Made by a program: the position numbers and the translations under genes
Part shown: in pieces, positions 22,577 to 47,478 of the stretch
Numbering within the stretch: the first letter of the stretch is position 1
Layout of the letters: every line of letters starts with the position of its first letter
Assembly: GCA_016188915.1 (NCBI GenBank)
Contig: JACPGU010000002.1
Coordinates: forward strand, 85,287 to 149,286
Direction: 5' to 3'
Length of the DNA stretch: 64,000 nucleotides
From: Candidatus Microgenomates bacterium
GTDB taxonomy: Bacteria; Patescibacteriota; JACPGU01
The notes under the pieces: generated by a model
What the model was told of the DNA's origin: nothing
Databases searched by the model: none
Seen by the model: only the letters and a program-made list of their open reading frames with translations

Positions 22577-22605
22577 AATCTGGGTCAGTGCGGTGAACCC
22601 AGATT
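22577..22605 (-). terminator. hairpin terminator candidate, also one arm of an 11-nt inverted repeat
   Basis: AATCTGGGT-(11 nt)-ACCCAGATT. On the minus strand it is followed by TTTTTTTATTAT. Its loop GGTCAGTGCGG recurs inverted at 22655-22665 (CCGCACTGACC). Confidence 0.4.
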
Positions 22606-22953: not shown

Positions 22954-24249
22954 TTATATTCGTCGTTCTATAAATTTATCTTGAAACTTTTCAATAGTCT
23001 GGAACGACACTTCGTTGAAGTTAAATATCTTGAAAAGCTTTATGCATAAATCATTTGCTGTTTCTTTCCATAAAGACTTTAGTTTTACCGATGACACTCT
23101 TTCGTCCAAAGATACTACGGATTCACGACAAATATACCAATCGTAAAGCAAAATATTAAAGTCGTAGGATTTTAGCTTTCTATCTTCAGCACCGTAAAGT
23201 TTTATACCAATATCAATATCGCCATCGTAGTTTAGCTCATCTACATAAAACTGTTTAGAGAATAAGAGAAATTCTGTTATTGAGTATATGGCTCCTATAT
23301 AGCTTAATGCTTTGCCTGTGTCGGTTTCGTCCTGTTTTGCACCGTCTTCTCTTAGAGTGATTTTGTAAACAAAAAGACCGCTCTGGAAAAGACGGAAAGC
23401 TTCATAATGCTTTGGTTCAAATTTTGTCCACGACTGAACACCTTTTGAAAAGTTAGCAAAATCGTTTTTATCAAGATGTGGAAAATCCCACCCCCTCAAT
23501 TGAACTCTCTGGTTCTCAACTGCTTGTTTTACTTTGGTTATATCTGGAATTAAGTCTTTTTTATATTCGGTTGGTTTTACCACTATTTCCCAATATCCAT
23601 ATTTTTTTAACTCTTCTCCTATTTTTTTCTCGATATAGTCACTGGCTTCGACCAACTCATCCTTGTAATCGTCATTTTCTTCTGTATTGCTGGGTCTTCC
23701 ACTAAACAGTCGTCCAATCTGATTCAATAGAAAATCTCCTTTCTTGGTCATTGCCCTACCAAGTAATTCTCGCATTTCCGTTGAAGATGGTATGGCTTCG
23801 CTCGATCCCTTTTCCGTTCTAATATAAATGCCCCCATCTTTTAGTATCGGTTGCTGTTTTGTATTCTGATTACTCCTCTTGCATATTATTGGTTCTTCAT
23901 CGAATTCGGGTACTTCTATTATGACAAGGTTCTTTCCTTTATAAATAGGTCGTTGAACATAAACTGTAAATTTAGGGTCTGTATAACTATGCAATTTATT
24001 ATTAAAGGAAGTCTGGTCAAAGGACGCGAGATTCTCATCGGATAAACCCTCTACTGTGCCGTCATCCTTTATGCCAATAAAAATTCTCCCACCGTTTTTA
24101 GTGTTTGCCATCGCCAATATGTCTTTTATGACACCGAGATGACAATCTTTATCAGTGTTGCAATTAAAATCTTCCTTAAAGTCGACATTGGCTGTCTCTG
24201 CTCTCGATTTAAATATTTGCTCTAGCTCTTCTTCTGGGTATTGCGACAT
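22954..24249 (-). CDS. Schlafen-like AlbA_2 (putative DNA-binding) domain protein
   Basis: 431 aa. The N-terminal 120 aa, FKEDFNCNTDKDCHLGVIKDILAMANTKNGGRIFIGIKDDGTVEGL, match the AlbA_2/divergent-Schlafen pattern (E..EfK....DK...i.k.isAfANt.GG.l.iGv.DdG.i.G). The C-terminal 250 aa are unassigned. Confidence 0.55.
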   Translation of the reverse strand: MSQYPEEELEQIFKSRAETANVDFKEDFNCNTDKDCHLGVIKDILAMANTKNGGRIFIGIKDDGTVEGLSDENLASFDQTSFNNKLHSYTDPKFTVYVQRPIYKGKNLVIIEVPEFDEEPIICKRSNQNTKQQPILKDGGIYIRTEKGSSEAIPSSTEMRELLGRAMTKKGDFLLNQIGRLFSGRPSNTEENDDYKDELVEASDYIEKKIGEELKKYGYWEIVVKPTEYKKDLIPDITKVKQAVENQRVQLRGWDFPHLDKNDFANFSKGVQSWTKFEPKHYEAFRLFQSGLFVYKITLREDGAKQDETDTGKALSYIGAIYSITEFLLFSKQFYVDELNYDGDIDIGIKLYGAEDRKLKSYDFNILLYDWYICRESVVSLDERVSSVKLKSLWKETANDLCIKLFKIFNFNEVSFQTIEKFQDKFIERRI

Positions 24250-24409
24250 AAAGTTTCATTAATATCTCTATTTATTATAACACAAAAAAACAGGATTTGC
24301 CCTGTTATTTTTGTCCGAAAAAGAGTTGTTTAATGGACAGATGTTTTACTTTTACCTGTAAGGTTGAATAGCCACTATTTTCGATAGGGTTTTTTGGACA
24401 GGCGATATT

Positions 24410-25198
24410 TCATTTAATATCTATGTCGTCCATATCAATATCCATAAGCTCTCTAAATTTTTCGGCTATGCTTTTCCATTTACCTGCCGTTGGTTCGGAA
24501 ATATCTATTACTAACTCGCCATTAAGGTTTTTCTTTATATACTTATGTTTCTTGATTTTCTCATAAAAAATTACTTCCATAAATTCATTTAGTAAGCTAA
24601 GTGTCGTCTTGATAGCCATAAACACCCCATAATGATATTTCTCGTGTTCTTTTTTGTAACCACCACCAATCCAAAGTGTAGGATTTGTCTGGTCGAGATT
24701 TCCCTTGGGGGCAGTATGTAAGAGGCTTATATGCGAAATATAGTTGCTTAGTACTCCATACTCCTGCCCAGCCAATGGAATAGCTTTGGTGGCAATTGAG
24801 ATAGCCTTTGTAGAGTCATACTTATTCGATTTTAACTGTATCAGTTTGTCGGGGTTAGAATGTATATCAAAAGCAGAAGCCACTGTTTCTACTACCATTC
24901 TTAAGATTGTCTGTGGCTCCAAGATATGTCCTCTTCTAAAGATTTCTATTGCAGATATTATTGACCCAAGCCCATTCCATAAAAAAATAGCGGATTGAAA
25001 ATCTGCATCAGATAGAGCATTCTCTCCTTCAGAATCAATAAGACCGATAAGGGTTTCTAATGACTCGGCTATTTCTTCTGCGAGACCATAGAATATCTCG
25101 TCATAATTACTATCAAAATCTTGGGCGACAAGGTCGCTTTTTGACTTTATATGTCCCAAAACGGTTTCTGTTGTAATTGGTTGCCTAACCGTATCCAT
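24410..25198 (-). CDS. hypothetical protein (island cargo)
   Basis: 262 aa, no recognisable motif. Acidic C-terminus MDIDMDDIDIK. Confidence 0.35.
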   Translation of the reverse strand: MDTVRQPITTETVLGHIKSKSDLVAQDFDSNYDEIFYGLAEEIAESLETLIGLIDSEGENALSDADFQSAIFLWNGLGSIISAIEIFRRGHILEPQTILRMVVETVASAFDIHSNPDKLIQLKSNKYDSTKAISIATKAIPLAGQEYGVLSNYISHISLLHTAPKGNLDQTNPTLWIGGGYKKEHEKYHYGVFMAIKTTLSLLNEFMEVIFYEKIKKHKYIKKNLNGELVIDISEPTAGKWKSIAEKFRELMDIDMDDIDIK

Positions 25199-25223
25199 AG
25201 TAACATTATACTATTTTTATAGA

Positions 25224-25805
25224 CTATTTGAAACTAGAAATCGCATTTTGTACTGTCGATTTTGAGATGTTTACCATACTTGCTATTCTCCTAACAGACA
25301 ACCCTTGCTGTCTTAATTCACTTATCCGAACAATATCAATCTCTGATGCTGGTCTGCCTATTTTCTTTCCTTTTGCTCTTGCCTTTGCCATTCCTGCCCT
25401 CACCCTCTCTTGGATTATTGACCTCTCAAATTCTGCGAAAGCAGATATCATTGTGAACATTACCTTCCCTGTCGGTGTCGATGTGTCTATCGCCTCTTGA
25501 TAGCTCACAAAGTCTATTCCTAGCGAATTAAAGGTATCCAGAGAGGTTATGAGTTGCTTTGTGCTTCTACTGAACCTATCAAAGCGAAATACCACCACAC
25601 AATCAAATTTTCTCTTGTGAGCGTCATTTAATAGCTCCGTAAGGGCCGGTCTGTTTTCTTTGCTTCCGCTATCCGTATCAGTGTAGCTTCTGAATACCTC
25701 CCAGCCTCTATTTTTCACATACTCTTGTAATGGTATCAGTTGGGTATCGAGGTCTTGGTTCTTATCTGTGGTACTTATACGAGCGTAGATTGCAATTTTT
25801 TTCAT
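25224..25805 (-). CDS. small serine recombinase (resolvase/invertase family)
   Basis: 193 aa. Catalytic N-terminus IAIYARISTTDKNQDLDTQ. C-terminal HTH LSVRRIASMVNISKSTVQNAI. Confidence 0.8.
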   Translation of the reverse strand: MKKIAIYARISTTDKNQDLDTQLIPLQEYVKNRGWEVFRSYTDTDSGSKENRPALTELLNDAHKRKFDCVVVFRFDRFSRSTKQLITSLDTFNSLGIDFVSYQEAIDTSTPTGKVMFTMISAFAEFERSIIQERVRAGMAKARAKGKKIGRPASEIDIVRISELRQQGLSVRRIASMVNISKSTVQNAISSFK

Positions 25806-25844
25806 ATCTTGTGGTTAGTTATATTGCTATTGGCACAAAACAAA

Positions 25845-25866
25845 AGCCTCGCATTTCTACGAGGCT
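25845..25866 (-). terminator. rho-independent terminator (minus strand)
   Basis: AGCCTCG-catttcta-CGAGGCT. Followed on the minus strand by TTTTGTTTTG. Lies 3' of yidD. Confidence 0.55.
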
Positions 25867-26003
25867 TTATTGTTGAGTAATTTCTCTTTTCTATTTTTCG
25901 GTTTTTTCTTTTCGCTCCCCATAACCAAAATTATTGTATAGATTTAGTATAGAATATGAACTATCTGTGTCAATAGTTATTGTCTATATGAGGCCAAATA
26001 TCA

Positions 26004-26219
26004 CTATGGGTAATCTATACAGCTCTCGAAATTGTCTGGGCGACATCGGTTAATACGATTGAGGGCTTTTCTTGTCCCCATTGTCACTCCATACTTCTCA
26101 ATAGCCAATATGGCATAATCGGAACAAGTTGGATAAAAACGGCACTGTATCCTGCGTCTCAAAAGTGGCGAAATTGTCTTCTGGTAGACAACTATTAAGA
26201 ATATAACTAATTTTGACAT
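26004..26219 (-). CDS. yidD: membrane protein insertion efficiency factor YidD
   Basis: 71 aa. The RFYPTCSDYA motif and overall pattern are typical of the YidD family. Confidence 0.75.
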   Translation of the reverse strand: MSKLVIFLIVVYQKTISPLLRRRIQCRFYPTCSDYAILAIEKYGVTMGTRKALNRINRCRPDNFESCIDYP

Positions 26220-26220
26220 C

Positions 26221-26478
26221 CTATAGTTCGTGTGTTATTTCTTCTTTTTTTATAGCTCGAGAACCACATTTTGGGCACTTGCCAAGGTCTAGTGGCTTTT
26301 TGTCTGGGATAAATGCAGCGGGGCCACAACCAGAACAGCACGATGCAGATTTGCCACAATTCTCCATCGATTCGCCACACGACTGTGCCGCTTCCTGCTT
26401 ACCATAGAACCAGATATTCCCACAAGCACTACAGCTACATTTTGTTTCCTTTATGATTTTGGGCTTTGTTTTTTCCAT
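26221..26478 (-). CDS. zinc-ribbon protein
   Basis: 85 aa with four CxxC pairs (CSCSAC, CCSGC, CPKC). Its end abuts the yidD start. Confidence 0.45.
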   Translation of the reverse strand: MEKTKPKIIKETKCSCSACGNIWFYGKQEAAQSCGESMENCGKSASCCSGCGPAAFIPDKKPLDLGKCPKCGSRAIKKEEITHEL

Positions 26479-26522
26479 ATTTCGTATTTAGTTAATAATA
26501 TGACAGTTGGGCTATTATTATC

Positions 26523-28073
26523 CTATTTGCAGGGTTCGTGTAGGGTTCTACTGGGATATGCTTTCTGTACAGCTTCTAAACTCGGAAAAGATTGTAGATA
26601 TTTTGTAGAGAGATTCTTATAGGCCGAGTCTGTATCGCAATAATAAAGATATGCTGTGCCATAAGAGCTCGCATAATAAGTGTGTCCAGATGTGGTTTGC
26701 GGGGCAGGGACTGGAGTGGGCGTTACTGGTGCTGGCACAGGGCTAGTTGGTGCTGGTGTGGTGGTAGTTGGTGACGAACTTGTTGTATTGCCGCTACAGG
26801 TAGTCGAGCTCCATAATCCCTTCTGCCCACTTCTCGCTTGTTTCTCTGCTTCTTTGAACTCGGCTTGGTATTTATATGGGATATCGTATGTATATTCGTG
26901 AGCATACCCATCACCAATCATTTGCTTGTTAAAAAATGTGCCATTTTCAAGATAAACATAACGCAATAGCCGACCATATTTGTCCCTATCCCCTTGAGTC
27001 GCATCAGATTCAAGCTTAACTTTCTTCCCCGAAAGCAATGCCTTCGCTCTATTGGAAGCCTCAACACCAAAACACTGAACTGGTTTTCGAGGGTCAACAG
27101 TTTCAGGAGTATCTACACCTATTAGACGAATCGTTTCTGTCTTTCCGCTAACACTGGCCTTAAAAGTATCGCCATCCGTTACGGAAACAACGCCATAATA
27201 CTGTGTAGTGGTCTGGGTGGGCGTTGTCTGGTTGCTCTGGGTGTTTGAACCAGAAGATGACTGACTAGCGTCCGTTTTGTTGTCTTCCCCTGTTGTTTGG
27301 GATTCTTGATTTGCCTCCTCCTTCTTTGGTGGAGTATAGGTTATTTTTATATCCTTTCTGTCGCTTTGATTCCCTGCTTCATCTATAGCTATAAGATAAA
27401 AATTGTTCTCTCCTTCATTCAGGCTGACTGAATCAACGGTAATTTCTTCGCTGGATTCTCGTACCTCTTTAATTTTTTTGTTGTCTGAACCAAAAAGTTC
27501 TATTCTTGCGTTTTTCTCTGTTTTTCCTTTTATATCTGTCTTGTCTTTGTCGCTAGTAATCTCTGTATTTTCAAGTTCTATGTTTGGCTTTTGTGTATCA
27601 AGAATAATTTTTTTAGTAGCACTTTTATTTGTACTGCCATTACTGTCTGTTGTGCTTACATAAACTGTGTTTTCACCTTCATTGAGCGTAAACTCTCCAA
27701 AAATGAACTTTCCGTTGGAATCGGCAATCACTTCTTGGATTTCTTGATTATTTATCATAAGTTTCGCTTTTGTCCCGCTTTCAATATGGTAGCCAGAGAC
27801 AACAACCGCCTTTTGATTAGTCGGACTTTTTATTTCATCTAAAAAAGGTTGTCCTTTTGCCGACAAGGACATTATCAGAATCAAAAACACCACAACAACT
27901 ATGGTGGCAATGATTTTATAGACTCGTCCCCATTTGGTCTTCGCCCAAATAGTCCAGACAGCAATAAAGGGTAATAAGAGAATGATAACTGGTAGTAAAA
28001 CGATGATGGCTACAATGCCCCACCATTTTGCATACCATCCTCTTTTTTTGGTTTTTACTTCGGTGTTTTCCAT
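26523..28073 (-). CDS. membrane-anchored secreted thermonuclease (SNase-like) with Ig-like domains
   Basis: 516 aa. N-terminal TM helix, then two beta-sandwich-like regions, then an SNase core VSVTDGDTFKASVSGKTETIRLIGVDTPETVDP...RDKYGRLLRYVY. Ends in a Pro/Thr-rich linker and a Cys-containing C-terminus. Confidence 0.7.
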   Translation of the reverse strand: MENTEVKTKKRGWYAKWWGIVAIIVLLPVIILLLPFIAVWTIWAKTKWGRVYKIIATIVVVVFLILIMSLSAKGQPFLDEIKSPTNQKAVVVSGYHIESGTKAKLMINNQEIQEVIADSNGKFIFGEFTLNEGENTVYVSTTDSNGSTNKSATKKIILDTQKPNIELENTEITSDKDKTDIKGKTEKNARIELFGSDNKKIKEVRESSEEITVDSVSLNEGENNFYLIAIDEAGNQSDRKDIKITYTPPKKEEANQESQTTGEDNKTDASQSSSGSNTQSNQTTPTQTTTQYYGVVSVTDGDTFKASVSGKTETIRLIGVDTPETVDPRKPVQCFGVEASNRAKALLSGKKVKLESDATQGDRDKYGRLLRYVYLENGTFFNKQMIGDGYAHEYTYDIPYKYQAEFKEAEKQARSGQKGLWSSTTCSGNTTSSSPTTTTPAPTSPVPAPVTPTPVPAPQTTSGHTYYASSYGTAYLYYCDTDSAYKNLSTKYLQSFPSLEAVQKAYPSRTLHEPCK

Positions 28074-28297
28074 ATCGTTTGGTTATTTATAAACACAAAA
28101 AAGGTCACCTGAACTAGCGGTGTAACCTTGCGGACACACCCGCTATCCTTTCGGATAGTGACCTCAACGACGAAGTACCAGTCAGATGACCGTTCTTGTC
28201 GTTGAGGATTTCATAACCATACCTCAAATTACTTCGAGGGTTAGGTTAATACTCTAAATTGTAAATATACTCTATCATAAAAATCTACCAGAGTAAA

Positions 28298-34107: not shown

Positions 34108-35349
34108 TTACAGGTTATTGCTAGAAGCGGCTTCAAAGTTCATTTTGCTTAATTGTTTCGTTGTTTTCTTGGTTAATTGGAACGCCGCGCAAGTCGCGAT
34201 CATGACGGCGTTGTCACCACAATAAATAGTATCAGGTATTAAGTATTGAGTGTTAGGTATGAGCTGCCGAATTTCCAGTCTCATTTTTTCTCGCAATCTT
34301 TTATTCGCCGCCACACCACCAGCGATGCTGATAGTTTTTGCCTTATATTTCTGCGCGGCCTTGATGGTCTTGGCGACCAAAACATCGGTGGCGGCTTCTT
34401 CGAATTCATAAGCGAACATTCTTTTTCTCGCTTCAGTGGAGGTCTCACCTCCAGCAAAGCCGGAGGAAAGACCTCCGCTTTCGCGTTGCCATGCATACAA
34501 AACTGCGGTTTTCAGACCAGAAAAAGAAAAATTGAAATCGTTGCTATCGAGCATTGGACGAGGGAGAACAATCGGAGATTTATGATTTAAGATTTCAGAT
34601 TTTGGATTTTCAATCTGCAATCCTGCCTCGCCGGCAGGCAGGCTACAATCTGCAATCTGCAATTTTTCACGATATTTTTCGGCTTCTGCCGAAACGACCG
34701 GTCCGCCCGGGTACGGCAACCCCAAGATTTTGGCGACTTTATCAAACGCTTCTCCCGCTGCGTCATCCAAAGTTTCTCCGAGTGTTTGATATTGGCCGTG
34801 ATCTTTCATTAAAATAAGCGAGGTATGACCACCAGAGACCAGCAATATAATTGCTGGAAATTCAAAATTATTAGCGTTTAGCGTAGAGCGCTTAGCGTCT
34901 AGTTTAAGATTTTGGATTTTGGATTTATTTGAGATTTGAGTTTTGAGATTTGAGATTTCGCAAACGAAGTTTGCGTAAATGTGTCCCTCCAGATGATTCA
35001 CCGGTATTAAGGGCTTCCCCCACGCCAGCGCCAATGATTTGGCGGTATTAACGCCTACCAAAAGCGAGCCGATCAGTCCCGGATAGGCCGTCACGGCGAT
35101 TGCGTCTATCTGCGAAGGTGTCACCTTCGCATCTTTGAGAGCTCGTTCCGCCACCGAGATTATTTTTTCTACATGGGCGCGGGATGCTACCTCCGGTACC
35201 ACTCCGCCAGTCAAAGCGTGTATATCTATTTGAGAGGAGACAACATTGGAGAGGATAATCGCAGATTGTGGATTTTTAATTTCAGATTGTAGCTCAACTA
35301 CTGCCGCCGCTGTTTCATCGCATGATGTTTCAATACCTAATATTTTCAT
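34108..35349 (-). CDS. tsaD: tRNA N6-adenosine threonylcarbamoyltransferase TsaD (with three in-frame insertions)
   Basis: 413 aa versus about 340 for typical TsaD. Motifs MKILGIETSCDETAAA, HLEGH, LLVSGGHTSL, GLPYPGG and FSFSGLKTAV are all present. The extra length comes from three repeat-derived insertions (see repeat features). Confidence 0.85.
   Translation of the reverse strand: MKILGIETSCDETAAAVVELQSEIKNPQSAIILSNVVSSQIDIHALTGGVVPEVASRAHVEKIISVAERALKDAKVTPSQIDAIAVTAYPGLIGSLLVGVNTAKSLALAWGKPLIPVNHLEGHIYANFVCEISNLKTQISNKSKIQNLKLDAKRSTLNANNFEFPAIILLVSGGHTSLILMKDHGQYQTLGETLDDAAGEAFDKVAKILGLPYPGGPVVSAEAEKYREKLQIADCSLPAGEAGLQIENPKSEILNHKSPIVLPRPMLDSNDFNFSFSGLKTAVLYAWQRESGGLSSGFAGGETSTEARKRMFAYEFEEAATDVLVAKTIKAAQKYKAKTISIAGGVAANKRLREKMRLEIRQLIPNTQYLIPDTIYCGDNAVMIATCAAFQLTKKTTKQLSKMNFEAASSNNL
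34573..34662. repeat. heptamer-repeat/palindromic mini-element, in-frame 90-nt insertion in tsaD (copy A)
   Basis: AGATTTcAGATTTtGGATTTt heptamers, then the hairpin CCTGCC-tcgcc-GGCAGG, then CAATCTGCAATCTGCAA. It encodes the 30-aa insert LQIADCSLPAGEAGLQIENPKSEILNHKSP, which lies between conserved ...EKYREK and IVLPRPM... Confidence 0.6.
34873..34965. repeat. heptamer-repeat/palindromic mini-element, in-frame 93-nt insertion in tsaD (copy B)
   Basis: TTAGCGTAGAGCGCTTAGCG palindrome, then AGATTTTGGATTTTGGATTTATTTGAGATTTGAGTTTTGAGATTTGAGATTT, then the hairpin CGCAAAC-gaag-GTTTGCG. It encodes VCEISNLKTQISNKSKIQNLKLDAKRSTLNA between HLEGHIYANF and NFEFPAIILLVSGGH. Confidence 0.6.
35263..35292. 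repeat. short related insertion in tsaD N-terminus (copy C)
   Basis: AGATTGTGGATTTTTAATTTCAGATTGTAG contains a direct repeat of CAGATTGT. It encodes LQSEIKNPQS, which is absent from canonical TsaD between the ETSCDETA and LSNVxxSQ segments. Confidence 0.4.
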
Positions 35350-35430
35350 ATTATTGTGTAGCGTATTATAATAGACACAGTATATTATATCAGATTATTG
35401 GTTTTCTTGCTTTAATAAGCTATAATACTA

Positions 35431-36333
35431 TTGACTATGTCAACCGACAACCTGTTGCAATCAAAACGATGGGCGGAATTTCAAAAAGCTCTGGGAAGAG
35501 AGGTTTTTTGGATTGAAGATGCTTTATTGATAAAAAATAATCTCCCAAAAAACAAATGTTATCTTTTTTGCCCCTGGGGTCCAGAAAAATTAAATCAAGA
35601 TTTTTTGTTTAAGGCAAAGCTTTTGGCCAAAAAAGAGAAAGCTATTTTTATTCGCGTGGAGCCACGGGCAGGATTTAAGACAAAGGGTTTAGGATATAGA
35701 ATAAAAAAAACAAAAGACATCCATCCAAAGAATACTTTGGTCCTAGACCTTACCCAGGGCGAAGAAGAGTTGCTCAAAAATTTAAAGCAAAAAACTAGGT
35801 ACAATATCAATCTGGCAGCTAAAAAGGGCGTAAAAATAGAGACAACAACTAACCCCGAGCATATAAAAGTTTTCTATAAAATTATTGAGCAAACCAACAA
35901 AAGAGATCATGTTCGCTCTCATTCTAAAGATTACTACAAAAAAATGCTGGAGTCTCTGGGTGATGATGGCATCCTAAGGCTTTATTTGGCTCGCTACAAC
36001 AATCAATACATTGCCGGTAATCTCATCGCTTTTTATGGCAATACTGCAACTTACCTCCACGGAGCTTCTTCTGATTCAGAAAGAAATGTCATGGCGCCCT
36101 ACCTTTTGCAATGGCAAGCGATTAAAGATGCCAAGGAATACGGATGTCAGTATTATGATTTTTTCGGTATCGCTCCTAATGATTCCGTCCGTCATCCCTG
36201 GGCAGGAATTACCAGATTCAAAAAAGGCTTTGGTGGAACGCAAATAAATTTTCCGGGAACATACGATGTGGTGATTTCTGGAGGATGGTATATGATGTAT
36301 AAAATCTTTAGAACTTTGAATAGGCTAAGATAA
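35431..36333 (+). CDS. FemAB-family peptidoglycan interpeptide-bridge aminoacyltransferase-like protein
   Basis: 300 aa with two GNAT-like halves. TRYNINLAAKKGVKIE...NLIAFYGNTATYLHGASS...LLQWQAIKDAKEYGCQYYDFFGIAP resembles FemX/FemAB proteins. Confidence 0.5.
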   Translation: MTMSTDNLLQSKRWAEFQKALGREVFWIEDALLIKNNLPKNKCYLFCPWGPEKLNQDFLFKAKLLAKKEKAIFIRVEPRAGFKTKGLGYRIKKTKDIHPKNTLVLDLTQGEEELLKNLKQKTRYNINLAAKKGVKIETTTNPEHIKVFYKIIEQTNKRDHVRSHSKDYYKKMLESLGDDGILRLYLARYNNQYIAGNLIAFYGNTATYLHGASSDSERNVMAPYLLQWQAIKDAKEYGCQYYDFFGIAPNDSVRHPWAGITRFKKGFGGTQINFPGTYDVVISGGWYMMYKIFRTLNRLR

Positions 36334-36344
36334 CAGAAAAATTA

Positions 36345-36470
36345 TAAGCTCTAAATCCTAAATTATAAAGAAATTACAAGGCCCGAATCAAAAAGCTTAA
36401 AATGATTTGGAGTTTATGATTTGGAGCTTTTTTTTAGAATTTAGATTTTAGAATTTAGAGTTTAAGCCCC
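36345..36470. repeat. intergenic copy of the heptamer-repeat/palindromic element family (copy E)
   Basis: GCTCTAAATCCTAAATT ... GATTTGGAGTTTATGATTTGGAGC ... AATTTAGATTTTAGAATTTAGAGTTTAAGC. It has the same GATTTGR heptamers and imperfect inverted arms. Lies between the femAB-like gene and holA. Confidence 0.4.
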
Positions 36471-36475
36471 CTCTG

Positions 36476-37420
36476 ATGCTTTATCTTTTTCACGGAGAAG
36501 ATGATTTTCTCTCTTCGCAGCAATTGCAAAGGCAAAAAAATAATTTCGTCACCAAACACGGAGATATCAATCTTTCGGTCTATGACGAAGATAATTTTGT
36601 TTTTGAAAATCTAGCCAATGATCTTTTATCTTCTCCTTTTTTGGGTGAAAAAAGATTGGTGGTAGCAGAAAATCTTTTGGGCGTTTGGAAAAAAGAAGAC
36701 AAAGAAAAATTTGAAAAAATTATACCAAAAATAGCCGATACCACTATCGTTATCTTTCACGAAATAAAAAAAACAGACAGCCGCAATATGCTACTAAAAT
36801 ATTTTTCAAAAGACAACATCAAAGAATTTGTTCCGATGGACCAACCCCGATTAAGAAACTGGATAGATGCTCAAATGAGAGAATCTGGCTATCAAATAGA
36901 GTCAAAGACAAGCTTTGTTTTGGCCAATCGCGCCGGAGGCAACACCCGCCAAATTTACCATGAAATACAAAAATTATTAGCCTACAAATTTGAAGAAAAA
37001 AAAATTACCGCTCAAGATGTGGGAATGATAGTCTCCGAGCAGATGAATACTAATATTTTTGATTTTTCTAATGCTTTAGCCCAAAAAAATCTCACCCTAT
37101 CAGAGAAAGTTTTGAAAAATATTAGCGATACAGGAGAAAGTACTTTTGGCATTATGTCGCTTATCTCCAAACAATTTCGAAATCTTTTAGGCCTCAAAAT
37201 AGCCCGAGAAGAAAAAATAGACCAAAACACTATTGCTGAAAAATTAGCTATTCATCCTTACGCCTTGAAAAAATCAGCCGAACAGCTCCACAATTTCAGT
37301 ATAGAGAAATTACTTCAGATATATCATGCTATCGCCGCCACCGATCTGGCTATCAAGACCGGCGAAATGGAAGAAAGTCTAGCATTGGATCTTTTGGTGG
37401 TGAAAATTTGCCAACACTAA
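36476..37420 (+). CDS. holA: DNA polymerase III subunit delta
   Basis: 314 aa. The N-terminus MLYLFHGEDDFLSSQQLQ and overall pattern are typical of HolA. Confidence 0.7.
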   Translation: MLYLFHGEDDFLSSQQLQRQKNNFVTKHGDINLSVYDEDNFVFENLANDLLSSPFLGEKRLVVAENLLGVWKKEDKEKFEKIIPKIADTTIVIFHEIKKTDSRNMLLKYFSKDNIKEFVPMDQPRLRNWIDAQMRESGYQIESKTSFVLANRAGGNTRQIYHEIQKLLAYKFEEKKITAQDVGMIVSEQMNTNIFDFSNALAQKNLTLSEKVLKNISDTGESTFGIMSLISKQFRNLLGLKIAREEKIDQNTIAEKLAIHPYALKKSAEQLHNFSIEKLLQIYHAIAATDLAIKTGEMEESLALDLLVVKICQH

Positions 37421-37429
37421 GAACTTTTC

Positions 37430-40213
37430 CTACATCCCCCAGTTTTTGCCCTCTTTGGTATCCACTATAAGTGGACATTTGAGCTCCAAAACGTTTTCCA
37501 TTATTTTTGAGATTTGAGATTTGAGACCTGCCCCGCCGACAGGATGGTTTGAGATTTTTCCATCGGGAATTTCAAAAACCAGTTCATCATGCACTTGCAA
37601 AATCATCTTGACCTCCGAATTTTTCGAGAGAATCTGCCGGTCTATCTCAATCATCGCCAGCTTAATAATGTCGGCGGCGGTACCTTGGATAGGCATATTA
37701 ATCGCCATCCTTTCGGCAGCTTTTCGAACTTGCACCACCGGTGAGAGGATGTCGGGTGTCGGGCGACGACGCCCGAGCAGAGTCTCCACATGCCCGTGCT
37801 CTTTGGCAAATTCTATCGTGTCATTCAGATAATCACGAACGCCAGAAAAATTTTCAAAATATTGGTCAATAAATTCTTTCGCCTCGGTCGGCGAAACACC
37901 GATAGATTGCGAAAGTCCGAAAGCGCTCATGCCATAAAGAATGCCAAAATTCACCACCTTGGCGGTGCGTCTCTGTTCTTTCGTTACTTTGTCGGCCGAC
38001 ACACCAAAGACCGCTTGCGCCGTCTCGGCATGAATATCACGCCCATCACGAAAAGCTTGGAGCATTTTCTTGTCCCCTGATAGATGCGCTACCACGCGTA
38101 ACTCAATCTGTGAATAGTCAAATTTGATTAAAACATGACCTTTTTCCGCCACGAAAGCGGAACGAATCTGTTGCCCCCATTCTTCAGAAGCGGGAATATT
38201 TTGGAGATTGGGGTCAATAGAGGAAAGGCGTCCGGTGGCCGCAATCGTCTGACTGAAATTGGTATGGATTCTCCCGTCCATGGGATTGACCGCCTTGGGG
38301 AGAGCTTCCAGATAGGTATTTTGCAATTTGGTCAGCTCTCGGTATTCCAAAATCGGCTCAATAATAGGATGCGCGCCTTTCAATTTTTCCAGTTCACCGG
38401 CAGCGGTAGAAAGTCCGGTTTTGTTTTTTTTCACAAACTCGGAAGATATTTTTAGTTTTTTGAAAAGCACTTCCGCGAGTTGTTGGGGAGAAGCGATATT
38501 GAAGTCCTCTCCTGCTAATTGATGGATTTGTTTTTCTGATTTTTTAATTTTTTCCGCGACAACCTGTGATATTTCCTTCAATTTTCCCGCGTCAATCCGC
38601 ACCCCCCACCACTCCATATCGGCCAGCACGGAAAGAAGGGGCATCTCCACATCGTAAAAAAGGTCGTTGGTCTTTCCCGTCAATCTTCCCTTCAAAACCT
38701 CGTAGAGTCGCCAGGTGAAATCCGCGTCCTCGGCGGCGTATTCGGTCGCCTCATTGACATCGGTTTCGGCAAAAGATTTTTGTTTGGCGCCGGCGCCAAT
38801 GAGCGCGGTAATCGGAATCATCTGATGACCAAATTCAATGAAAGCCATATTGTCCAACGAATGTCCGCGTCTGACCGGATCGAGACAGTAAGAAGCGAGC
38901 ATGGTGTCAAAATAAATCCCCGTCATCTTCACCCCCGCTTTTCTGATGGCGAGCATGTCGTATTTGATATTTTGGCCGATTTTTTTTATTTTTTCGTTTT
39001 CTAGAATGGGTCGCAAGGTCTCTAAAACTGATTTTTTCGGCAATTGTTGCCCTTTGCTGTGTCCAACGGGGATATAATATCCCTCGCCCGCTTTCCAGGA
39101 AAAAGAAAGGCCGACCAATTCGGAATCCAGCGCGCCGAGAGCCGATGTCTCGGTATCTATGGCAAATTCTTTCTGCTTTTTTAATTCTTTGAGAAATTCT
39201 CCGAACGACCGCTGGTCATTGACGAGAATATAGTTGTTATTTAATTTCTTAATTTCTTCTTTTTTTAATTTCTTATCAAAAAGGGTCAGCTCATCTTGTT
39301 TACTTACGCTTTTTGATCCCTCGCCCATCAGCTTCAGCAACCTCGGCATTAGCGAGCGAAATTCAAATTTTTGGAAAGTGGCCGTCGCTTTCCCGAAATC
39401 CACATCCGTCAACTCGCACGCGGGCAATACCAATTTGATCGGCGCTTCTCTGTTGATTGTTGCCAATTTTTGCGATAGATAAGCATTTTCTTTATCAGCC
39501 AGCAGTTTTTCCTTCACCGCATCCGAGAACCCAAAATCCTTGCCTCCCACCGCCTCGTAAACGCTATCTAATGTCTGGTATTTTTGCAAAAGGTCGGTTG
39601 CGGTCTTTTCTCCTATCCCCTTCACCCCCGGGATATTGTCCGAAGCGTCACCTCGAAGCGCCTTGTAGTCCACTACTTGCGACGGCGTCAAACCCATCTT
39701 TTCCACCACCCCTTTCTCATCGTAAACGATGGTGTCCTTGATGCCTTTTTTCAAAGTGTAAACGAAAGTATTGTCGTCCACCAGCTGCAAAGTGTCCATA
39801 TCGCCAGTCACAATATAGGTATCCACACCAAGATTTTTTTCGTCAATCTTGGCGCACAATGTGCCGATGATGTCATCGGCCTCAAAGCCCTGTAGCTCAA
39901 AAATGGGGATATTGAGCGAGACCAAAACCTCCTGCGCCATCGGGATTTGTTCGTACAGCTCATCGGGAGCTTTGACGCGAGTGGCCTTGTAGTCGGCGTA
40001 TTCTTCGTGCCGGAAGGTGGGCCCAGCCATATCAAAAGTAGCGGCAATATAGTCGGGCTTGGTATCCTCAATGGCCTTCAAAAGCGTGGAGGTAAAGCCA
40101 TAGACCGCCCCGATAGGTCGGCCGTCTCTGGTGCGAAGATTGGGTATCGCGTGAAACGCCCGATGCACGAGCGCGTTGGAATCGATTAAGAGAAATTTCT
40201 TGTTCTTGGGCAT
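37430..40213 (-). CDS. polA: DNA polymerase I
   Basis: 927 aa. Has a 5'-3' exonuclease N-terminus, a 3'-5' exonuclease-like middle domain and a polymerase domain with RRTAKVVNFGILYGMSAFGLSQ (motif B) and VHDELVFEIPDG (motif C). Confidence 0.9.
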   Translation of the reverse strand: MPKNKKFLLIDSNALVHRAFHAIPNLRTRDGRPIGAVYGFTSTLLKAIEDTKPDYIAATFDMAGPTFRHEEYADYKATRVKAPDELYEQIPMAQEVLVSLNIPIFELQGFEADDIIGTLCAKIDEKNLGVDTYIVTGDMDTLQLVDDNTFVYTLKKGIKDTIVYDEKGVVEKMGLTPSQVVDYKALRGDASDNIPGVKGIGEKTATDLLQKYQTLDSVYEAVGGKDFGFSDAVKEKLLADKENAYLSQKLATINREAPIKLVLPACELTDVDFGKATATFQKFEFRSLMPRLLKLMGEGSKSVSKQDELTLFDKKLKKEEIKKLNNNYILVNDQRSFGEFLKELKKQKEFAIDTETSALGALDSELVGLSFSWKAGEGYYIPVGHSKGQQLPKKSVLETLRPILENEKIKKIGQNIKYDMLAIRKAGVKMTGIYFDTMLASYCLDPVRRGHSLDNMAFIEFGHQMIPITALIGAGAKQKSFAETDVNEATEYAAEDADFTWRLYEVLKGRLTGKTNDLFYDVEMPLLSVLADMEWWGVRIDAGKLKEISQVVAEKIKKSEKQIHQLAGEDFNIASPQQLAEVLFKKLKISSEFVKKNKTGLSTAAGELEKLKGAHPIIEPILEYRELTKLQNTYLEALPKAVNPMDGRIHTNFSQTIAATGRLSSIDPNLQNIPASEEWGQQIRSAFVAEKGHVLIKFDYSQIELRVVAHLSGDKKMLQAFRDGRDIHAETAQAVFGVSADKVTKEQRRTAKVVNFGILYGMSAFGLSQSIGVSPTEAKEFIDQYFENFSGVRDYLNDTIEFAKEHGHVETLLGRRRPTPDILSPVVQVRKAAERMAINMPIQGTAADIIKLAMIEIDRQILSKNSEVKMILQVHDELVFEIPDGKISNHPVGGAGLKSQISKIMENVLELKCPLIVDTKEGKNWGM
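37506..37560. repeat. heptamer-repeat/palindromic mini-element embedded in-frame near polA 3' end (copy D)
   Basis: TTTGAGATTTGAGATTTGAGA, then the hairpin CCTG-ccccgccga-CAGG, then GATGGTTTGAGATTTTT. It encodes GKISNHPVGGAGLKSQISKI in the variable linker after VHDELVFEIP. The hairpin core CCTGCCYCGCCGRCAGG is shared with copy A. Confidence 0.55.
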
Positions 40214-43976: not shown

Positions 43977-46055
43977 TTATTCCGGACGTAATTTTTCCAT
44001 CTCGGTTAATTGCTTCGGAGAAGTAGTGATAATTTGATCTTCAGTATAGGAAGCAGTCACCTTTATGGCCACATGATTGACCCCGGCAAAAAATAATCCC
44101 TCTCCCACACGCGACTCCAAAAGCAAGGCTTTTTCGCCTTCGGTCAGATTAAAAGTCGTCCCCACAGACTCAATAGAAGCAGGAGACTGTTTCAAAAGAA
44201 GTTGCATGGAAGAGTTCGTTACGATTGCCCGACCATATTTTGAGCCCAAAAAATCTTCCACATCTTGTGTTATGGTAGTCAGTCCCAAAAAATATTTGCG
44301 GGCTCTTTTGGCGATAGAAAAAATGAATTTGGCCGCGTCTTCGTTCTCCATCATCAACCATGCCTCGTCTACTATGAGCATTCTTTTTCTTCTCTCGGCC
44401 CTGACTCTGGCCCAAATGTAATCCAAAATCATATACATCGCAATCGGCCGAAGAGAGGTCTCCAAATCACGGATATTAAAAACCACGAAACCTTTGTGCA
44501 AATCAATATTGGTCGGTTTATTAAAAATCCCCGCGAAAGTACCAGAAACGTATTTTTCCATCCTTTGCGCTAAAGACAAACCATTTTGTGTTCTCAATAA
44601 TAGATTATACAAATCCCCCATCAAAGGAGCAGGGTTTTTTTGTGATTTGGGATCTTTGGTAATTCCCTTACTCATATAAACTTCCAATAGGGAGTGCTCT
44701 ATGATAGCGTCTTCTTCGTTATTCAATTTACCAAGCAGAAGGTTGATTAATCCTTTGACGGTAATAATAGTGGCACGCAAATTATCTTCTCCAATATCCT
44801 CCGTGGCATCATCAGCCAAAGGCGGGACATCAAATGGATTGATACGTTCATTGGAGGAAAGAGAAAAATTCAGATAACTGCCACCCACTATACGACAAAG
44901 ATTTTGATATTCATTTTCTGGGTCAATAACCATCACGTCTACCCCCAACATCATATAGCGCAAAGCTTCTAATTTTACCGCGTAAGACTTACCGCCTCCA
45001 GACTTAGCAAAAACTACTGAATTGGCGTTTTCCAGCTCCTCAAAGCGGTCAAAAATAATCAAGCCACGATTGTGCCTATTGATGCCGTACATGATGCCTT
45101 TATTGCCAGTTAAATCCATGGAAGTGAAGGGGAAGCTGGTGGACAAAGACCCCGTATCCATATTGCGACGAATGTCCAAAAGATCCGCGCCCTGTGGAAT
45201 GGTAGAGCGAAAGCCTTGTGCCATCTGGAAATTGGCCCTTTTGGTGTAGATAAGATTGCCGCCCAAGGTTGTCTCTATATTTTTGGTAATTAGCTCCAAA
45301 TCATCTAAAGTTTTGGCATAAATCGTAAAATAAAGGCAAAAATGAAATAATTTTTCCTCACCGCGCGAGAGTCTGTCGCGCAGATCTTCAATGTCTTGCA
45401 TGGCTGTTTCCAGCTCGGGATTTCTAACCAGACCCTTCTGCGCTTCAATAGACAGGGCAGATTCTACTTGGCCCGATCTTTTACGCAAAGTATCCAGTGC
45501 TCCGCGCGACTCTATCGGATAAATAAACATGCCGATATCAATGGTTTGATCAATATTGATAATGGGAGATAGCCAATTAGGGAAAATGTAGCGCGGATAA
45601 TTAAAAACGAAAAGAGTACGCACATAATAATCGTTAAGCATCAGATAGGAAGGCAAGGCCTGCAAGGAAGAAGGAGAGATTAAGTCACGAATAGAGGCCA
45701 AACCTTTTTCATAAGTTTCCTGCGCTTCTTTTTCTCTTTTTATTTGCTCTTGTTTTTTGTGTTCCGTCTCTTTTTGACGAGCCAATTCTTCAGGGCTCAT
45801 TTTTGGCCCAAACAAAGAAAATCCTTTTGGAGGAGACGCTGGCGATGGTGAAATAGGCGCGGGAGGAGGAGTAACCGGAGCAGGGCTTGGGCTAGAAGCC
45901 TTGGGAGCGCTCTGATAGGCCGAATAGATGCCAGCCGGAGCAGAAACAGGAATAGTAGAAGCAGGCGCGCTTTGTGGCGGCTTGATTGCGTCAAAAGTTT
46001 TTTGATTTTGGTTGTCTGGTTTTGATTCGGGCATAATCTCTCCACGATCTAACAA
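43977..46055 (-). CDS. VirB4/TraC/PrgJ-family type IV secretion ATPase-like protein
   Basis: 692 aa. Walker A VVFAKSGGGKSYAVKLEALRYMMLGVDVMVIDPENEYQNL. Walker B RKRMLIVDEAWLMMENEDAAKFI. About 100 aa of Pro/Ser/Ala-rich low-complexity N-terminus. Confidence 0.65.
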   Translation of the reverse strand: MLDRGEIMPESKPDNQNQKTFDAIKPPQSAPASTIPVSAPAGIYSAYQSAPKASSPSPAPVTPPPAPISPSPASPPKGFSLFGPKMSPEELARQKETEHKKQEQIKREKEAQETYEKGLASIRDLISPSSLQALPSYLMLNDYYVRTLFVFNYPRYIFPNWLSPIINIDQTIDIGMFIYPIESRGALDTLRKRSGQVESALSIEAQKGLVRNPELETAMQDIEDLRDRLSRGEEKLFHFCLYFTIYAKTLDDLELITKNIETTLGGNLIYTKRANFQMAQGFRSTIPQGADLLDIRRNMDTGSLSTSFPFTSMDLTGNKGIMYGINRHNRGLIIFDRFEELENANSVVFAKSGGGKSYAVKLEALRYMMLGVDVMVIDPENEYQNLCRIVGGSYLNFSLSSNERINPFDVPPLADDATEDIGEDNLRATIITVKGLINLLLGKLNNEEDAIIEHSLLEVYMSKGITKDPKSQKNPAPLMGDLYNLLLRTQNGLSLAQRMEKYVSGTFAGIFNKPTNIDLHKGFVVFNIRDLETSLRPIAMYMILDYIWARVRAERRKRMLIVDEAWLMMENEDAAKFIFSIAKRARKYFLGLTTITQDVEDFLGSKYGRAIVTNSSMQLLLKQSPASIESVGTTFNLTEGEKALLLESRVGEGLFFAGVNHVAIKVTASYTEDQIITTSPKQLTEMEKLRPE

Positions 46056-46069
46056 TATAACGATTTTAT

Positions 46070-46798
46070 TTATCCTATCTCCATCTCTTCTGGCAATTTT
46101 TCTATAATCTCGGCCTCCATCTGCGAAGGATCAATTAATTTTTGCGTCACCGCCTGATCGGGATTGTAGGTGCCATAAAAAAGCTCAATTAGGTCCTGGC
46201 TGACTAATTGCGAGATTTTTATACCCACTCCCTGCAAACCACTGGCCGTAGTAGCTACTTTTTGCATCAAATATTTTCTTTCATCAACAAAATTATTTAC
46301 AGCCACCGTCCCTTTGGCCCCAAAAAATCGACTCATTCCACCAATCTTGGCTACTCCGGCAGGATAATGGGAAATAACTACAAAAAATCTTTTTTGCATA
46401 ATGTTGGATTGCGTAATCAGCTCGCGAACATAATTAATATATTCTGCCATCTGCGTTCGCAAAAGCTCATTGGATTCTTGGTTTTTTCTTTCCTCAATAG
46501 TTTTCAAATAAACATCCAAATCCAGTCTCCTGGATTGCAATACTATCTGAATAGGAAAATCCAAAGAATTCAAAAAGCTTTGATAGCCATAAATAATAGA
46601 GTCGCGCTCTATCTCTGATTTCAATTCAAAATTGACTGCCGAACACATCAAAACAGCCTTCATACTACCGTCTTTTAGGATCAGAATGCCTTCGCGTATT
46701 TGATCAATATCTAAAAAAGACTGAGTGGCTGTGCTTTTTGCGGTCGATGCTTCCAGCGACGGATTGGTAATATTTTTTTGTGTTTTATTATCTGCCAT
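46070..46798 (-). CDS. hypothetical protein co-operonic with T4SS-like genes
   Basis: 242 aa, no TM helix, no motif. There is a 14-nt gap to the ATPase gene. Confidence 0.4.
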   Translation of the reverse strand: MADNKTQKNITNPSLEASTAKSTATQSFLDIDQIREGILILKDGSMKAVLMCSAVNFELKSEIERDSIIYGYQSFLNSLDFPIQIVLQSRRLDLDVYLKTIEERKNQESNELLRTQMAEYINYVRELITQSNIMQKRFFVVISHYPAGVAKIGGMSRFFGAKGTVAVNNFVDERKYLMQKVATTASGLQGVGIKISQLVSQDLIELFYGTYNPDQAVTQKLIDPSQMEAEIIEKLPEEMEIG

Positions 46799-46851
46799 CA
46801 GAATATTTGATTATTTGCCTACTTGATTAGTTGATTACTTGTTTGCTCCTA

Positions 46852-47478
46852 TCATTTCTTTGCTATCACGCCAGACAATGATGCCGCCAGATCTCGGAAG
46901 TCAGTGGTCTCTCTAGGGGTCACTGTCACATTTTCCAAAGCTTGCTCCAGGTCAGAAAAAACATCCTCCAAATCTTCTTCTATATTAGCATCTGCCACCG
47001 GGGCATTGGCAACTCCAACAATACGATCGGGGCTTATGCTACCACCTACCGCTCCGTGCGTATCCATAATGGTAGCCAATTCCGCCAAACGTGACTCTAT
47101 TATCCCGCTAGCCGCTTGACGGGCAATACCTTTTTTAGATTCTTCTGATTCAACCACTGACTGAGTTACCATATTTTTTACCCTTACCGATTTTTGCCAA
47201 GTTTTAATCTTCGGCTCTATAGTAAAAGCAGTAAAGAAAAGTAAAAAGTCCAAAAATGGCCTCTCATTAATTTTGACAAAGATCAAAGCGAAGCTCAAAG
47301 TAACCACCGGCAAAGCCAAAATAATGAAAAGGAGAAAGTTAGTAGAAGCAATAGCCAGATAAAGGACATAGGTAATCGCGCCACCCCCCACCATATACAA
47401 AAATTGCTTGAGCGTAAAGGGCCCGAATATTTTGTCTTCAATATCTATATTTTGCGGTATTTTATAATTGTCTTGCAT
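46852..47478 (-). CDS. PrgI/VirB3-like small two-TM protein
   Basis: 208 aa. The N-terminus ...KIFGPFTLKQFLYMVGGGAITYVLYLAIA is followed by a second TM helix, matching the PrgI-family pattern. The C-terminal 100 aa are acidic. Confidence 0.5.
   Translation of the reverse strand: MQDNYKIPQNIDIEDKIFGPFTLKQFLYMVGGGAITYVLYLAIASTNFLLFIILALPVVTLSFALIFVKINERPFLDFLLFFTAFTIEPKIKTWQKSVRVKNMVTQSVVESEESKKGIARQAASGIIESRLAELATIMDTHGAVGGSISPDRIVGVANAPVADANIEEDLEDVFSDLEQALENVTVTPRETTDFRDLAASLSGVIAKK

Follow-up and report, generated by a model that had tools for sequence, protein, structure and literature searches.

Within a 64,000-nucleotide stretch of Candidatus Microgenomates bacterium DNA (assembly GCA_016188915.1, contig JACPGU010000002.1, positions 85,287 to 149,286; hereafter the window), the tsaD and polA genes contain short repeats which are translated as part of the encoded proteins, and this raises the question of what kind of repeat can enter essential genes in frame. 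A preliminary description of this DNA had proposed that a single family of palindromic mini-elements, similar to the Rickettsia palindromic elements (RPE), had inserted three times into tsaD, once into polA and also between genes. We find that the phenomenon is real and more general than was first proposed, and that it is not a single RPE-like family. With a probability of roughly 0.6, we favour a reading in which two small repeat classes, one nested in the other, are tolerated in essential genes, namely arrays of tandem heptamers which would arise by slippage and template switching and a 21-nt hairpin module which would be copied.

Heptamer arrays and a shared hairpin module in tsaD and polA

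Tandem Repeats Finder (TRF) and a lag-7 self-match scan detected period-7 arrays at 34576-34602, 34646-34663, 34871-34902, 34908-34926, 34927-34958, 36432-36464 and 37506-37526 and a weaker period-7 run at 35257-35293, and together with pattern counts these analyses confirmed all five of the sites described earlier. Among periods 3-12, segments of 21 nt with at least 18 self-matches came from period 7 only. The pattern (GATTTNN)x3, with up to two mismatches, was matched 16 times in the 64-kb window, always on the + strand and always inside 34577-37529, while shuffled controls gave a mean of 1.3 and none of 100 shuffles reached 16. The similarity between copies was thus far above that of shuffled sequence. 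Nine of the 15 arrays of period 7, 14 or 21 in the window fell within 3.3 kb (binomial P ~1e-8).

The tsaD gene (tRNA t6A transferase subunit; 34108-35349, - strand, 413 aa open reading frame (ORF)) and the polA gene (DNA polymerase I; 37430-40213, - strand, 927 aa ORF with PDB matches) were said to share a hairpin, and this was borne out. The sequence CCTGCCYCGCCGRCAGG was matched exactly twice in the window, at 34622-34638 and 37527-37543, and shuffled sequences yielded no match. At both positions the hairpin and four further bases make up exactly 21 nt, or three heptamer slots, in a 7+7+7 layout of CCTGCCT, a CGCCGGC loop and AGGCAGG, the last being the reverse complement of the first heptamer. 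This 21-nt module is free of stop codons whichever of the six frames is read and, because it is both stop-free and 21 nt long, it never disrupts a reading frame.

In tsaD the module (34622-34642, + strand, CCTGCCTCGCCGGCAGGCAGG) encodes the peptide LPAGEAG and forms the centre of copy A, which spans about 91 nt or 13 heptamer slots. The left arrays of copy A (34573-34621, +) read AGATTTA TGATTTA AGATTTC AGATTTT GGATTTT followed by CAATCTG CAAT (TRF 34576-34602, period 7; coding strand ...ENPKSEILNHKS), and the right array (34643-34665, +) reads CTA CAATCTG CAATCTG CAAT (TRF 34646-34663, period 7, 100% matches). The module lies inside the CAATCTG array with the register unbroken, as CAATCTG CAAT, CCTGCCTCGCCGGCAGGCAGG, CTA CAATCTG. 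In polA the module (37527-37547, +, CCTGCCCCGCCGACAGGATGG) has 17 of its 21 positions in common with the tsaD copy, encodes HPVGGAG and is located near the C-terminus of the protein, after the motif-C strand QVHDELVFE. It is preceded by a left array (37503-37526, +; TTTTTGA GATTTGA GATTTGA GA; TRF 37506-37526, 100% matches), which is TCTCAAA x3 on the coding strand and is translated LKSQISK, and it is followed by a right flank (37548-37558, +, TTTGAGATTTT) to which register analysis assigned approximately 1.5 units. The coding strand therefore reads TCTCAAA, CCATCCTGTCGGCGGGGCAGG, TCTCAAA x3, with in-register TCTCAAA units on both sides, so that here too the register of the host array is unchanged. 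The two module copies are 2.9 kb apart in one orientation and one frame, as had been noted from their peptides.

Copy B of tsaD is composite. Part 1 (34871-34902, +, TRF) is made of TTAGCGT-type heptamers, CGCTAAN on the coding strand, and part 2 (34903-34958, +, TRF) of GATTTTG x2.7 and ATTTGAG x4.6 (coding strand AAATCTC/AAATCCA, peptide EISNLKTQISNKSKIQNL). Copy B had been described with heptamers of the GATTTGR type, which part 2 contains; the CGCTAAN heptamer of part 1 is a second one, unrelated to the GATTT type. Adjoining copy B is the hairpin CGCAAAC-gaa-GTTTGCG (34959-34975, +), which is built on the conserved YANF codons. The third TsaD copy (35257-35293, +) reads CAGATTG TGGATTT TTAATTT CAGATTG, with (GATTTNN)x3 matches at 35264-35289, and it encodes LQSEIKNPQSA, which adds 8-10 residues relative to most homologues and corresponds to an 8-residue gap in the alignment with 3zet. 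The three tsaD sites of the preliminary description were all real, but the gene holds a fourth insert at 34435-34479 (- strand), an inverted repeat of two small GC-rich hairpins of the GGAGG-n-CCTCC type which encodes GGLSSGFAGGETS and which was present in diverged form in the relative L001 and in database entry P0003.

The remaining site is intergenic. Between the FemAB-family gene (35431-36333, +) and holA (36476-37420, +) an element at 36345-36464 (+) consists of a left arm CTAAATC CTAAATT, an inner hairpin followed by T8, and a right arm TTTAGAA TTTAGAT TTTAGAA TTTAGAG. As a whole it forms one long hairpin with 25-nt arms which are 84% complementary, and the calculated folding energies were -15.7 kcal/mol as DNA (z = -2.6) and -36.3 kcal/mol as RNA. 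The suggestion that the five sites are copies of one mini-element did not hold, since the hairpin module was found at two of the five sites only and the arms differed both among the copies and at orthologous sites.

The inserts are, as had been proposed, derived from repeats and frame-preserving, and comparison with known proteins established that solved homologues lack them. In window TsaD, which is 100% identical to NCBI TsaD entry P0001, four loop inserts account for a length about 75 aa above that of bacterial TsaD proteins with solved structures; among database homologues the length of TsaD varied from 342 to 487 aa. When 25 homologues were aligned the extra residues fell at four sites, which relative to the solved Salmonella TsaD (337 aa) were approximately 21-30, 128-156, 224-259 and 293-305. 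An AlphaFold model of window TsaD had a predicted local distance difference test score (pLDDT) of 79 and a predicted template modelling score (pTM) of 0.81, with a core near pLDDT 90, and pLDDT dropped below 50 solely at 23-25, 132-153, 235-257 and 295-302, which are the insert sites. The location in surface loops was in this way supported both by the structure gaps and by the low pLDDT. In PolA, exactly seven extra residues (SNHPVGG) were counted relative to the Klenow fragment, and the protein was seven residues longer at the module site than that of the relatives L001, L003, L004 and L006; in this event about 13 codons were replaced and seven were added. The peptide LPAGEAGLQIENPK is an example which spans an insert. 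Both the tsaD and polA ORFs were intact, so that insertion was in frame and non-disruptive as it is for RPE. The inserts would be neutral or nearly neutral disordered loops which leave the catalytic motifs intact.

The same sites in related genomes

The closest named source of a similar TsaD was a candidate division CPR3 bacterium, and the locus was syntenic with metagenome-assembled genomes (MAGs) of the candidate phyla radiation (CPR); judged from this match and this synteny, the host of the window is taken to be CPR-like. GC content along the window was 0.33-0.48. The closest TsaD relative in the databases searched had 69% identity. L001 (GCA_964355795.1), a syntenic relative, had 69% identity in TsaD (BLASTP) and 80% in PolA, and L004 had 57% identity in TsaD. 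The window and the tsaD regions of five relatives together formed a set of 161 kb.

In a codon alignment the TsaD loops of L001 contained period-7 arrays of other units, AAACACA/AAATTAC and ACTCAAC x4.4, and no CCTGCC hairpin; the AAACACA/AAATTAC arrays occupy the site orthologous to copy B part 2. Copy B part 1 is 21 nt (three CGCTAAN units) longer than the same position in L001, which holds a single CTAAACG, and because the 21-nt gap lies beside this single heptamer the CGCTAAN array is a local in-frame expansion. Past the conserved YANF codons the window has CGCAAAC-ttc-GTTTGCG and L001 a 13-bp stem, CGCGAATTTTATC-tcc-GATAAAATTCGCG, each formed from its own codons. A further tsaD hairpin at 35111-35131 has a perfect 10-bp stem, TGCGAAGGTG-t-CACCTTCGCA; two of its pairs differ in L001, where compensatory changes maintain the stem. 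Had the relatives shared the same extra peptides, these would be ordinary loops of the lineage; the peptides differ. Conserved lineage-specific loops were ruled out on the same grounds, since relatives carry different sequences in the same loops.

The TsaD of L004 contained the identical 17-mer in the same loop, inverted relative to the gene, inside an AATATCC array and read as SLPRRQAG. This opposite orientation and the different surrounding array make the position of the module hard to explain by descent. At the PolA site no heptamers were present in L001, which instead has a perfect 20-nt palindrome, AGACAGAGCG/CGCTCTGTCT, and L004 has a different palindrome, GGGCAGAAAA/TTTTCTGCCC. Neither palindrome lengthened the protein, and that of L004 is shorter by one residue; such changes fit template switching. 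The spacer between femAB and holA measures 143 nt in the window, as against about 6 nt in L001; array hairpins were found there in the window, L003 and L004, each with a different unit, and none in L001.

Other small hairpin modules behave like the CCTGCC module, as polA of both L003 and L004 contains two copies of a palindrome family of its own. In L003 these are at 6023-6050 and 6243-6262 (VATIHELSL and GAIHELPVQ), and in L004 at 5433-5462 and 6953-6972 (VGAEDFLPLQ and VGAENFLPK). Within window polA we also observed a period-8 array, TTAATTTC x4.4, at 39241-39275; near this position L001 has a hairpin-type insert, SVGADNNLP, and L003 and L004 have palindromes of the GTAGGGGC...GCCCCTAC type. 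From these sequences the region looks like a second insertion hot spot of PolA.

Abundance of the arrays and dispersal of the module

Heptamer arrays were abundant in this clade well beyond the window. TRF detected 70 period-7 arrays in the 161-kb set as compared to 5.2 in Markov controls, 11 of period 14 (controls 1.2) and seven of period 21 (controls 0), with a smaller excess at periods 8 and 9. In a panel of tsaD-anchored loci of named genomes, in which the distant TsaD loci had at most 46% identity among the matches listed, array density per 100 kb reached 43 in this clade, as against 7.2 for the 21 loci from other CPR and 5.2 for the 52 loci from outside the CPR. Density was approximately 0 in Saccharibacteria and intermediate in Wildermuth-, Davies-, Magasanik- and Spechtbacteria. 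The repeat features recurred in independent NCBI, JGI and ENA assemblies. Arrays were usually 4-5 units or about 30 nt long. Among 68 arrays, the exact canonical units AAGTATT (seven times), AAATCTC (six) and AAATCTT (five) recurred across genomes; exact units were counted as single-linkage clustering at one mismatch chained nearly all of the units together.

Of 88 arrays, 47 were genic and 40 intergenic, while non-coding sequence accounted for just 10-24% of the DNA. The genic arrays were in TsaD, PolA, aminoacyl-tRNA synthetases, FemAB and MurE-like genes. Consensus units with stop codons in both orientations were found in 20 of 34 arrays between genes and in 8 of 34 arrays within genes (Fisher P = 0.006), and this shortage of double-stop units inside genes is the signature of a selection filter. 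An intergenic array was typically separated by a loop from its own reverse complement, and the two fold into a long hairpin which in several cases was followed by T5-T8. From the anatomy of hairpin and T-run these are probably terminators or RNA-stabilising hairpins, although a consensus terminator scan did not call the intergenic array hairpins. Perfect hairpins with a stem of at least 10 bp numbered 30 as compared to about two in controls, several of them inside genes, and a GC-containing hairpin lay within 30 nt of 12% of arrays as compared to 2.7% of random placements (4.6-fold).

Two more intergenic arrays were present in the window. The rpoD-dnaG array (18007-18034, +) reads TTTAGAG TTTAGGG TTTAGGA, and a GTATTAA-type array 5' of dnaG (19807-19835, +) belongs to a unit family which also occurs in intergenic hairpins of L003 and L004. 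TTTAGGG, in the former, is the plant-telomere unit, a likeness which is probably a coincidence.

The exact 21-mer CCTGCCTCGCCGGCAGGCRGG was found in at least 120 metagenome contigs, and the statistics which follow cover 80 metagenome loci among the matches listed, with 82 module copies. GC content was below 0.5 in 72 of the 80 loci. Forty-seven copies (57%) were within long ORFs, where they occupied all six frames and, at 26 forward to 21 reverse, showed no strand bias, and the host genes identified by Pfam included a class I aminoacyl-tRNA synthetase (IleRS-like), PheT, LepA and MutL. The flanks were nearly without information, the weak preferences being T at -2 and C at -1 on one side and a pyrimidine at +1 on the other; positions -15 to -1 held at most 0.32 bits and no GTAG motif such as marks repetitive extragenic palindromic (REP) sequences. 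In-register heptamer flanks across the module were seen in nine copies as compared to 0-1 at other offsets, and exact 7-nt direct repeats flanked four copies where 0.12 were expected, whereas repeats of 3-6 or 8 nt were not in excess; when at least five of seven positions were required to match, 19 of 81 copies had such repeats. The window copies and the L004 copy all lie inside arrays. Overall, about 15-23% of module copies touch heptamer arrays, and the two repeat classes are therefore separable. In the 161-kb set there were 3-4 modules of this family and 88 arrays. The description of a dispersed palindromic element was thus apt for the hairpin, given the inverted L004 copy and the metagenome contigs, but not for the heptamer arrays, which are lineage-wide and built of many units.

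Two metagenome loci illustrate how the module is accommodated. In L115 it is in TsaD loop 4. In L102 (contig Ga0190315_1008066) the GTPase domain of LepA/EF4 is 54 residues longer than the profile, and the extra residues are heptamer-array peptides and the 21-nt module (…KSQISNKFKNSNIKNSFKIQNSCLAGRQAKFKIPDS…). In L099, L111, L148 and L158 the module is nested in a longer palindromic repeat, …GTCATTCCGAAG/GTCATTGCGAGG…CTCGCAATGAC…, which was found in at least four metagenome contigs. A viral scan gave four matches, of which L207 alone looked CPR-like; this IMG/VR contig (GC 0.39) has the exact module at 3742-3762 beside a TTTTTCC heptamer array. The other three viral matches were GC-rich and probably unrelated. 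We also considered whether the module could be a DNA uptake signal and rejected this by reasoning, as each copy brings in 21 additional nt, which substitution would not do, and the density is only about one per 30 kb.

Among 30 of the approximately 60 window ORFs, a Pfam scan found no mobilising enzyme and no REP-associated tyrosine transposase (RAYT); it did identify two serine recombinases, in an unrelated island. A tRNA-Ser(GGA) gene (20638-20726, +) overlaps the 3' end of the large serine recombinase ORF (20630-22240, -), which is followed by a Schlafen/AlbA_2 protein, a small resolvase (25224-25805) and a staphylococcal-nuclease-domain protein, so that 20630-28073 looks like an island integrated at a tRNA gene. 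An Rfam search of 34-38 kb with E values up to 1 matched no RNA family. Elsewhere in the window the LOOT RNA family (RF03000) was matched over its full length at 28119-28247 (-) with 74 bits, where the gathering score is 46. At 43977-47478 and 2107-11917 the window contains type-IV-secretion-like genes (TraG P-loop ATPase, PrgI) and a large glycosyltransferase, Wzy and polysaccharide-export cluster.

Relation to known repeats, origin and meaning

By analogy, the nearest known kind to the arrays is the group of short tandemly repeated repetitive (STRR) and Nostoc heptamer repeats of cyanobacteria, together with the TAACTGA repeats. STRR sequences are reportedly cyanobacterial arrays of tandem heptanucleotides. 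As in STRR and TAACTGA repeats, the arrays here consist of a few tandem 7-nt units each, belong to several unit families per genome and occupy many dispersed loci with intergenic enrichment, stop-bearing units being kept out of coding regions. TAACTGA-type heptamers have been described in Beggiatoaceae, cyanobacteria and Bacteroidetes (PMC4679880; bioRxiv 10.1101/2022.06.06.494920), and the work of Mrazek et al., in the form in which PMC4679880 summarises it, found that among long simple repeats the heptanucleotides predominate in most genomes of prokaryotes and proposed slippage as the cause, with about 7 nt in contact with the polymerase. Slippage or horizontal spread has been proposed as the origin of these repeats. 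Unlike the STRR sequences, the arrays described here have a CPR/Patescibacteria host and AT-rich units other than the canonical CCCCAGT, TTGGTCA and CAACAGT, about half of them are in frame inside essential genes, and the intergenic ones are inverted pairs which form long hairpins. TAACTGA repeats are mostly just 5' of start codons, which is not so here.

For the module the nearest known kind, by analogy, is the small dispersed repeat (SDR) of Nostoc. SDR sequences are said to be 21-27 nt long, hairpin-capable, present in hundreds of copies and nested in heptamer arrays. The module shares with them this size class, which is too small to be coding, as well as the many dispersed copies, unrelated flanks and nesting in heptamer arrays. 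It differs in being exactly 21 nt (7+7+7), stop-free in six frames and often intragenic, and in occurring in many different CPR-like genomes where SDR are confined to one genus. To our knowledge, its sequence is unrelated to that of the Nostoc SDR.

The RPE, to which the inserts were originally likened, are reportedly palindromic repeats which lie in frame within genes, essential ones included, at surface positions of proteins which stay functional. They are 100-150 bp long and fall into families, each with its consensus, and are not known to be built of tandem heptamers. The parallel holds for the outcome, in-frame colonisation of protein-coding genes, but not for size, structure or sequence. 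The conserved unit here is 21 nt and was present at two of the five sites rather than as a 100-150 bp consensus in all copies, the remainder consists of variable, locally expanding arrays, and the taxon is unrelated. REP sequences and the hairpins formed from them (REPIN) are short GC-rich imperfect palindromes which are thought to move via single-stranded hairpins and are mobilised by RAYT (PMC3116915; PMC6006769). The module resembles REP in being one of many dispersed GC-rich palindromes of about 20-35 nt, but REP are extragenic while 57% of module copies were inside ORFs, the 5' GTAG is absent, and no RAYT was seen among the 30 window ORFs scanned. A miniature inverted-repeat transposable element (MITE) has terminal inverted repeats and a target-site duplication of fixed length; the module has no fixed termini, and its 7-nt flanking repeat, exact in four copies, fits a target duplication and insertion into arrays alike. 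The tandem repeats of Borgs are described, in the portion of PMC9879509 on which we draw, as recent, fast-evolving, of local origin and encoding disordered protein segments. The arrays here are alike in all of these respects, but the Borg amino acid units given in that portion of PMC9879509 are of 4, 8, 12 or 17 residues, while those here are a fixed 7 nt, a length not divisible by three, in bacterial chromosomes. In the literature on CPR bacteria we found no description of heptamer, RPE, MITE or in-frame repeats, a search whose coverage was incomplete and from which we claim no priority.

In the reading which we favour, the heptamer arrays would form, and be renewed where they stand, through replication slippage and template switching that proceed 7 nt at a time. 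A high rate of both in this lineage, the simplest account of the observations as a whole, would produce 7-nt tandem duplications, convert sequence to palindromes of unchanged length and copy short hairpins to nearby or ectopic sites. Survival within a gene would require a net length which is a multiple of three (three units being 21 nt or seven residues), a unit without stops on the coding strand and a permissive surface loop. The module is a true dispersed repeat, copied between loci and present across many low-GC CPR-like genomes; the copying may be short-range, by template switching or gene conversion at a fork-stalling hairpin, or else a putative enzyme may mobilise it in trans.

Several points weigh against this reading. 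Neither slippage nor a template-switch event was directly observed. Slippage alone explains neither the narrow array length of 4-5 units nor the recurrence of a few units at many loci and genomes, which looks like dispersal of the arrays themselves. Slippage and template switching do not account for the perfect conservation of the module across many genomes, and the 7-nt repeats which flank it could be an enzymatic 7-bp target duplication rather than the result of insertion into an array; the conservation and the flanking repeats together keep enzymatic copying of the module a possibility. The arrays and the module may also be of unrelated origin. Finally, the terminator role proposed for the intergenic hairpins draws on hairpin and T-run, and the consensus scan did not flag them.

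It is unlikely, in our estimate, that the whole cassette of about 90 nt, heptamer arms and hairpin together, transposes as a unit in the manner of a classical non-autonomous RPE or MITE. The arm-core-arm anatomy of both copy A and the intergenic element would suit such a cassette, as would the lack of the femAB-holA element in L001, the five GATTT-type sites on a single strand within 3 kb, a clustering which genome-wide transposition nevertheless does not predict, and the recurrence of unit families across genomes. However, the hairpin is at just two of five sites, the arms differ between sites and even between orthologous sites, and terminal inverted repeats of fixed sequence are absent. In the contigs with the module, at least 120 in number, its flanks are moreover unrelated and arrays are mostly lacking; one array grew by local expansion, and at the PolA site sequence was replaced, which is not a clean insertion. 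Rather improbable, too, is an enzymatic 7-nt system in which the module is an ultra-small mobile element with a 7-bp target duplication and insertion and excision footprints build the arrays. It would account for the 7+7+7 module, its conservation over many genomes, the association of arrays with hairpins and direct repeats which are specifically 7 nt long (four exact against 0.12 expected, and 19 of 81 at five or more of seven positions), although insertion into existing arrays explains the flanking repeats equally well. Against it, arrays are far more numerous than modules of this family (88 to 3-4 in 161 kb), heptamer arrays are present in cyanobacteria and Beggiatoaceae, for which no such module is described (PMC4679880; bioRxiv 10.1101/2022.06.06.494920), footprints leave the inverted array pairs unexplained, and the scan of 30 window ORFs revealed no candidate enzyme.

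We hold it to be quite improbable that the repeats are functional elements under selection, whether binding sites, for instance of heptamer-binding proteins of the cold-shock type, RNA structures, regulatory hairpins or adaptive disordered linkers. Hairpin potential is indeed kept while sequence changes in the femAB-holA spacer, at the PolA site, next to YANF and at 35111-35131, and regulatory roles for heptamers have been proposed and CspB binding reported (PMC4679880; bioRxiv 10.1101/2022.06.06.494920). The insert peptides, for which disorder is predicted, are however not conserved between relatives, the module is present in either orientation (26 forward, 21 reverse) and in six frames within functionally unrelated housekeeping genes, and there was no Rfam match. 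That the inserts are ordinary low-complexity loops of the lineage, chance similarity in AT-rich DNA or an assembly artefact can scarcely be entertained. The genome is AT-rich (GC 0.33-0.48) and many CPR TsaD proteins vary in length, but all chance controls were widely exceeded and codon-based low complexity would not give a period of seven. Chance similarity and artefact were refuted by the shuffle controls and by the recurrence of the features in independent NCBI, JGI and ENA assemblies. A bolder reading, which we regard as doubtful, is that one CPR lineage has a novel repeat-writing system working in 7-nt steps, in which the 21-nt hairpin is the smallest known mobile element, spreading among many genomes of the CPR and, whatever the frame, into essential genes, and in which an enzyme or an unusual property of the replisome lays down or duplicates heptamers around the hairpin, so that new disordered loops continuously appear in core proteins.

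If these findings are borne out, part of the greater length and variability of core proteins in some CPR bacteria would be explained. Many odd peptides of low complexity in metagenomic proteins, among them KSQISNLKSQ, NPKSEIRNPKS, LPAGEAG and SLPRRQAG, would then be translated repeat DNA and not functional motifs, and TsaD, Pol I, IleRS, PheT, LepA and MutL would offer a natural experiment on insertion tolerance and the birth of disordered loops. The 21-nt module would be a marker which can be tracked across genomes to find its copying agent. We expect the finding to be of moderate surprise to specialists in CPR genomics or bacterial repeats. The long-standing heptamer question would reach beyond cyanobacteria and Beggiatoaceae into a lineage which is very distant and genome-reduced, and the presence of heptamers in so distant a lineage would favour a mechanistic cause, a property of the polymerase or of replication, over a lineage-specific function.

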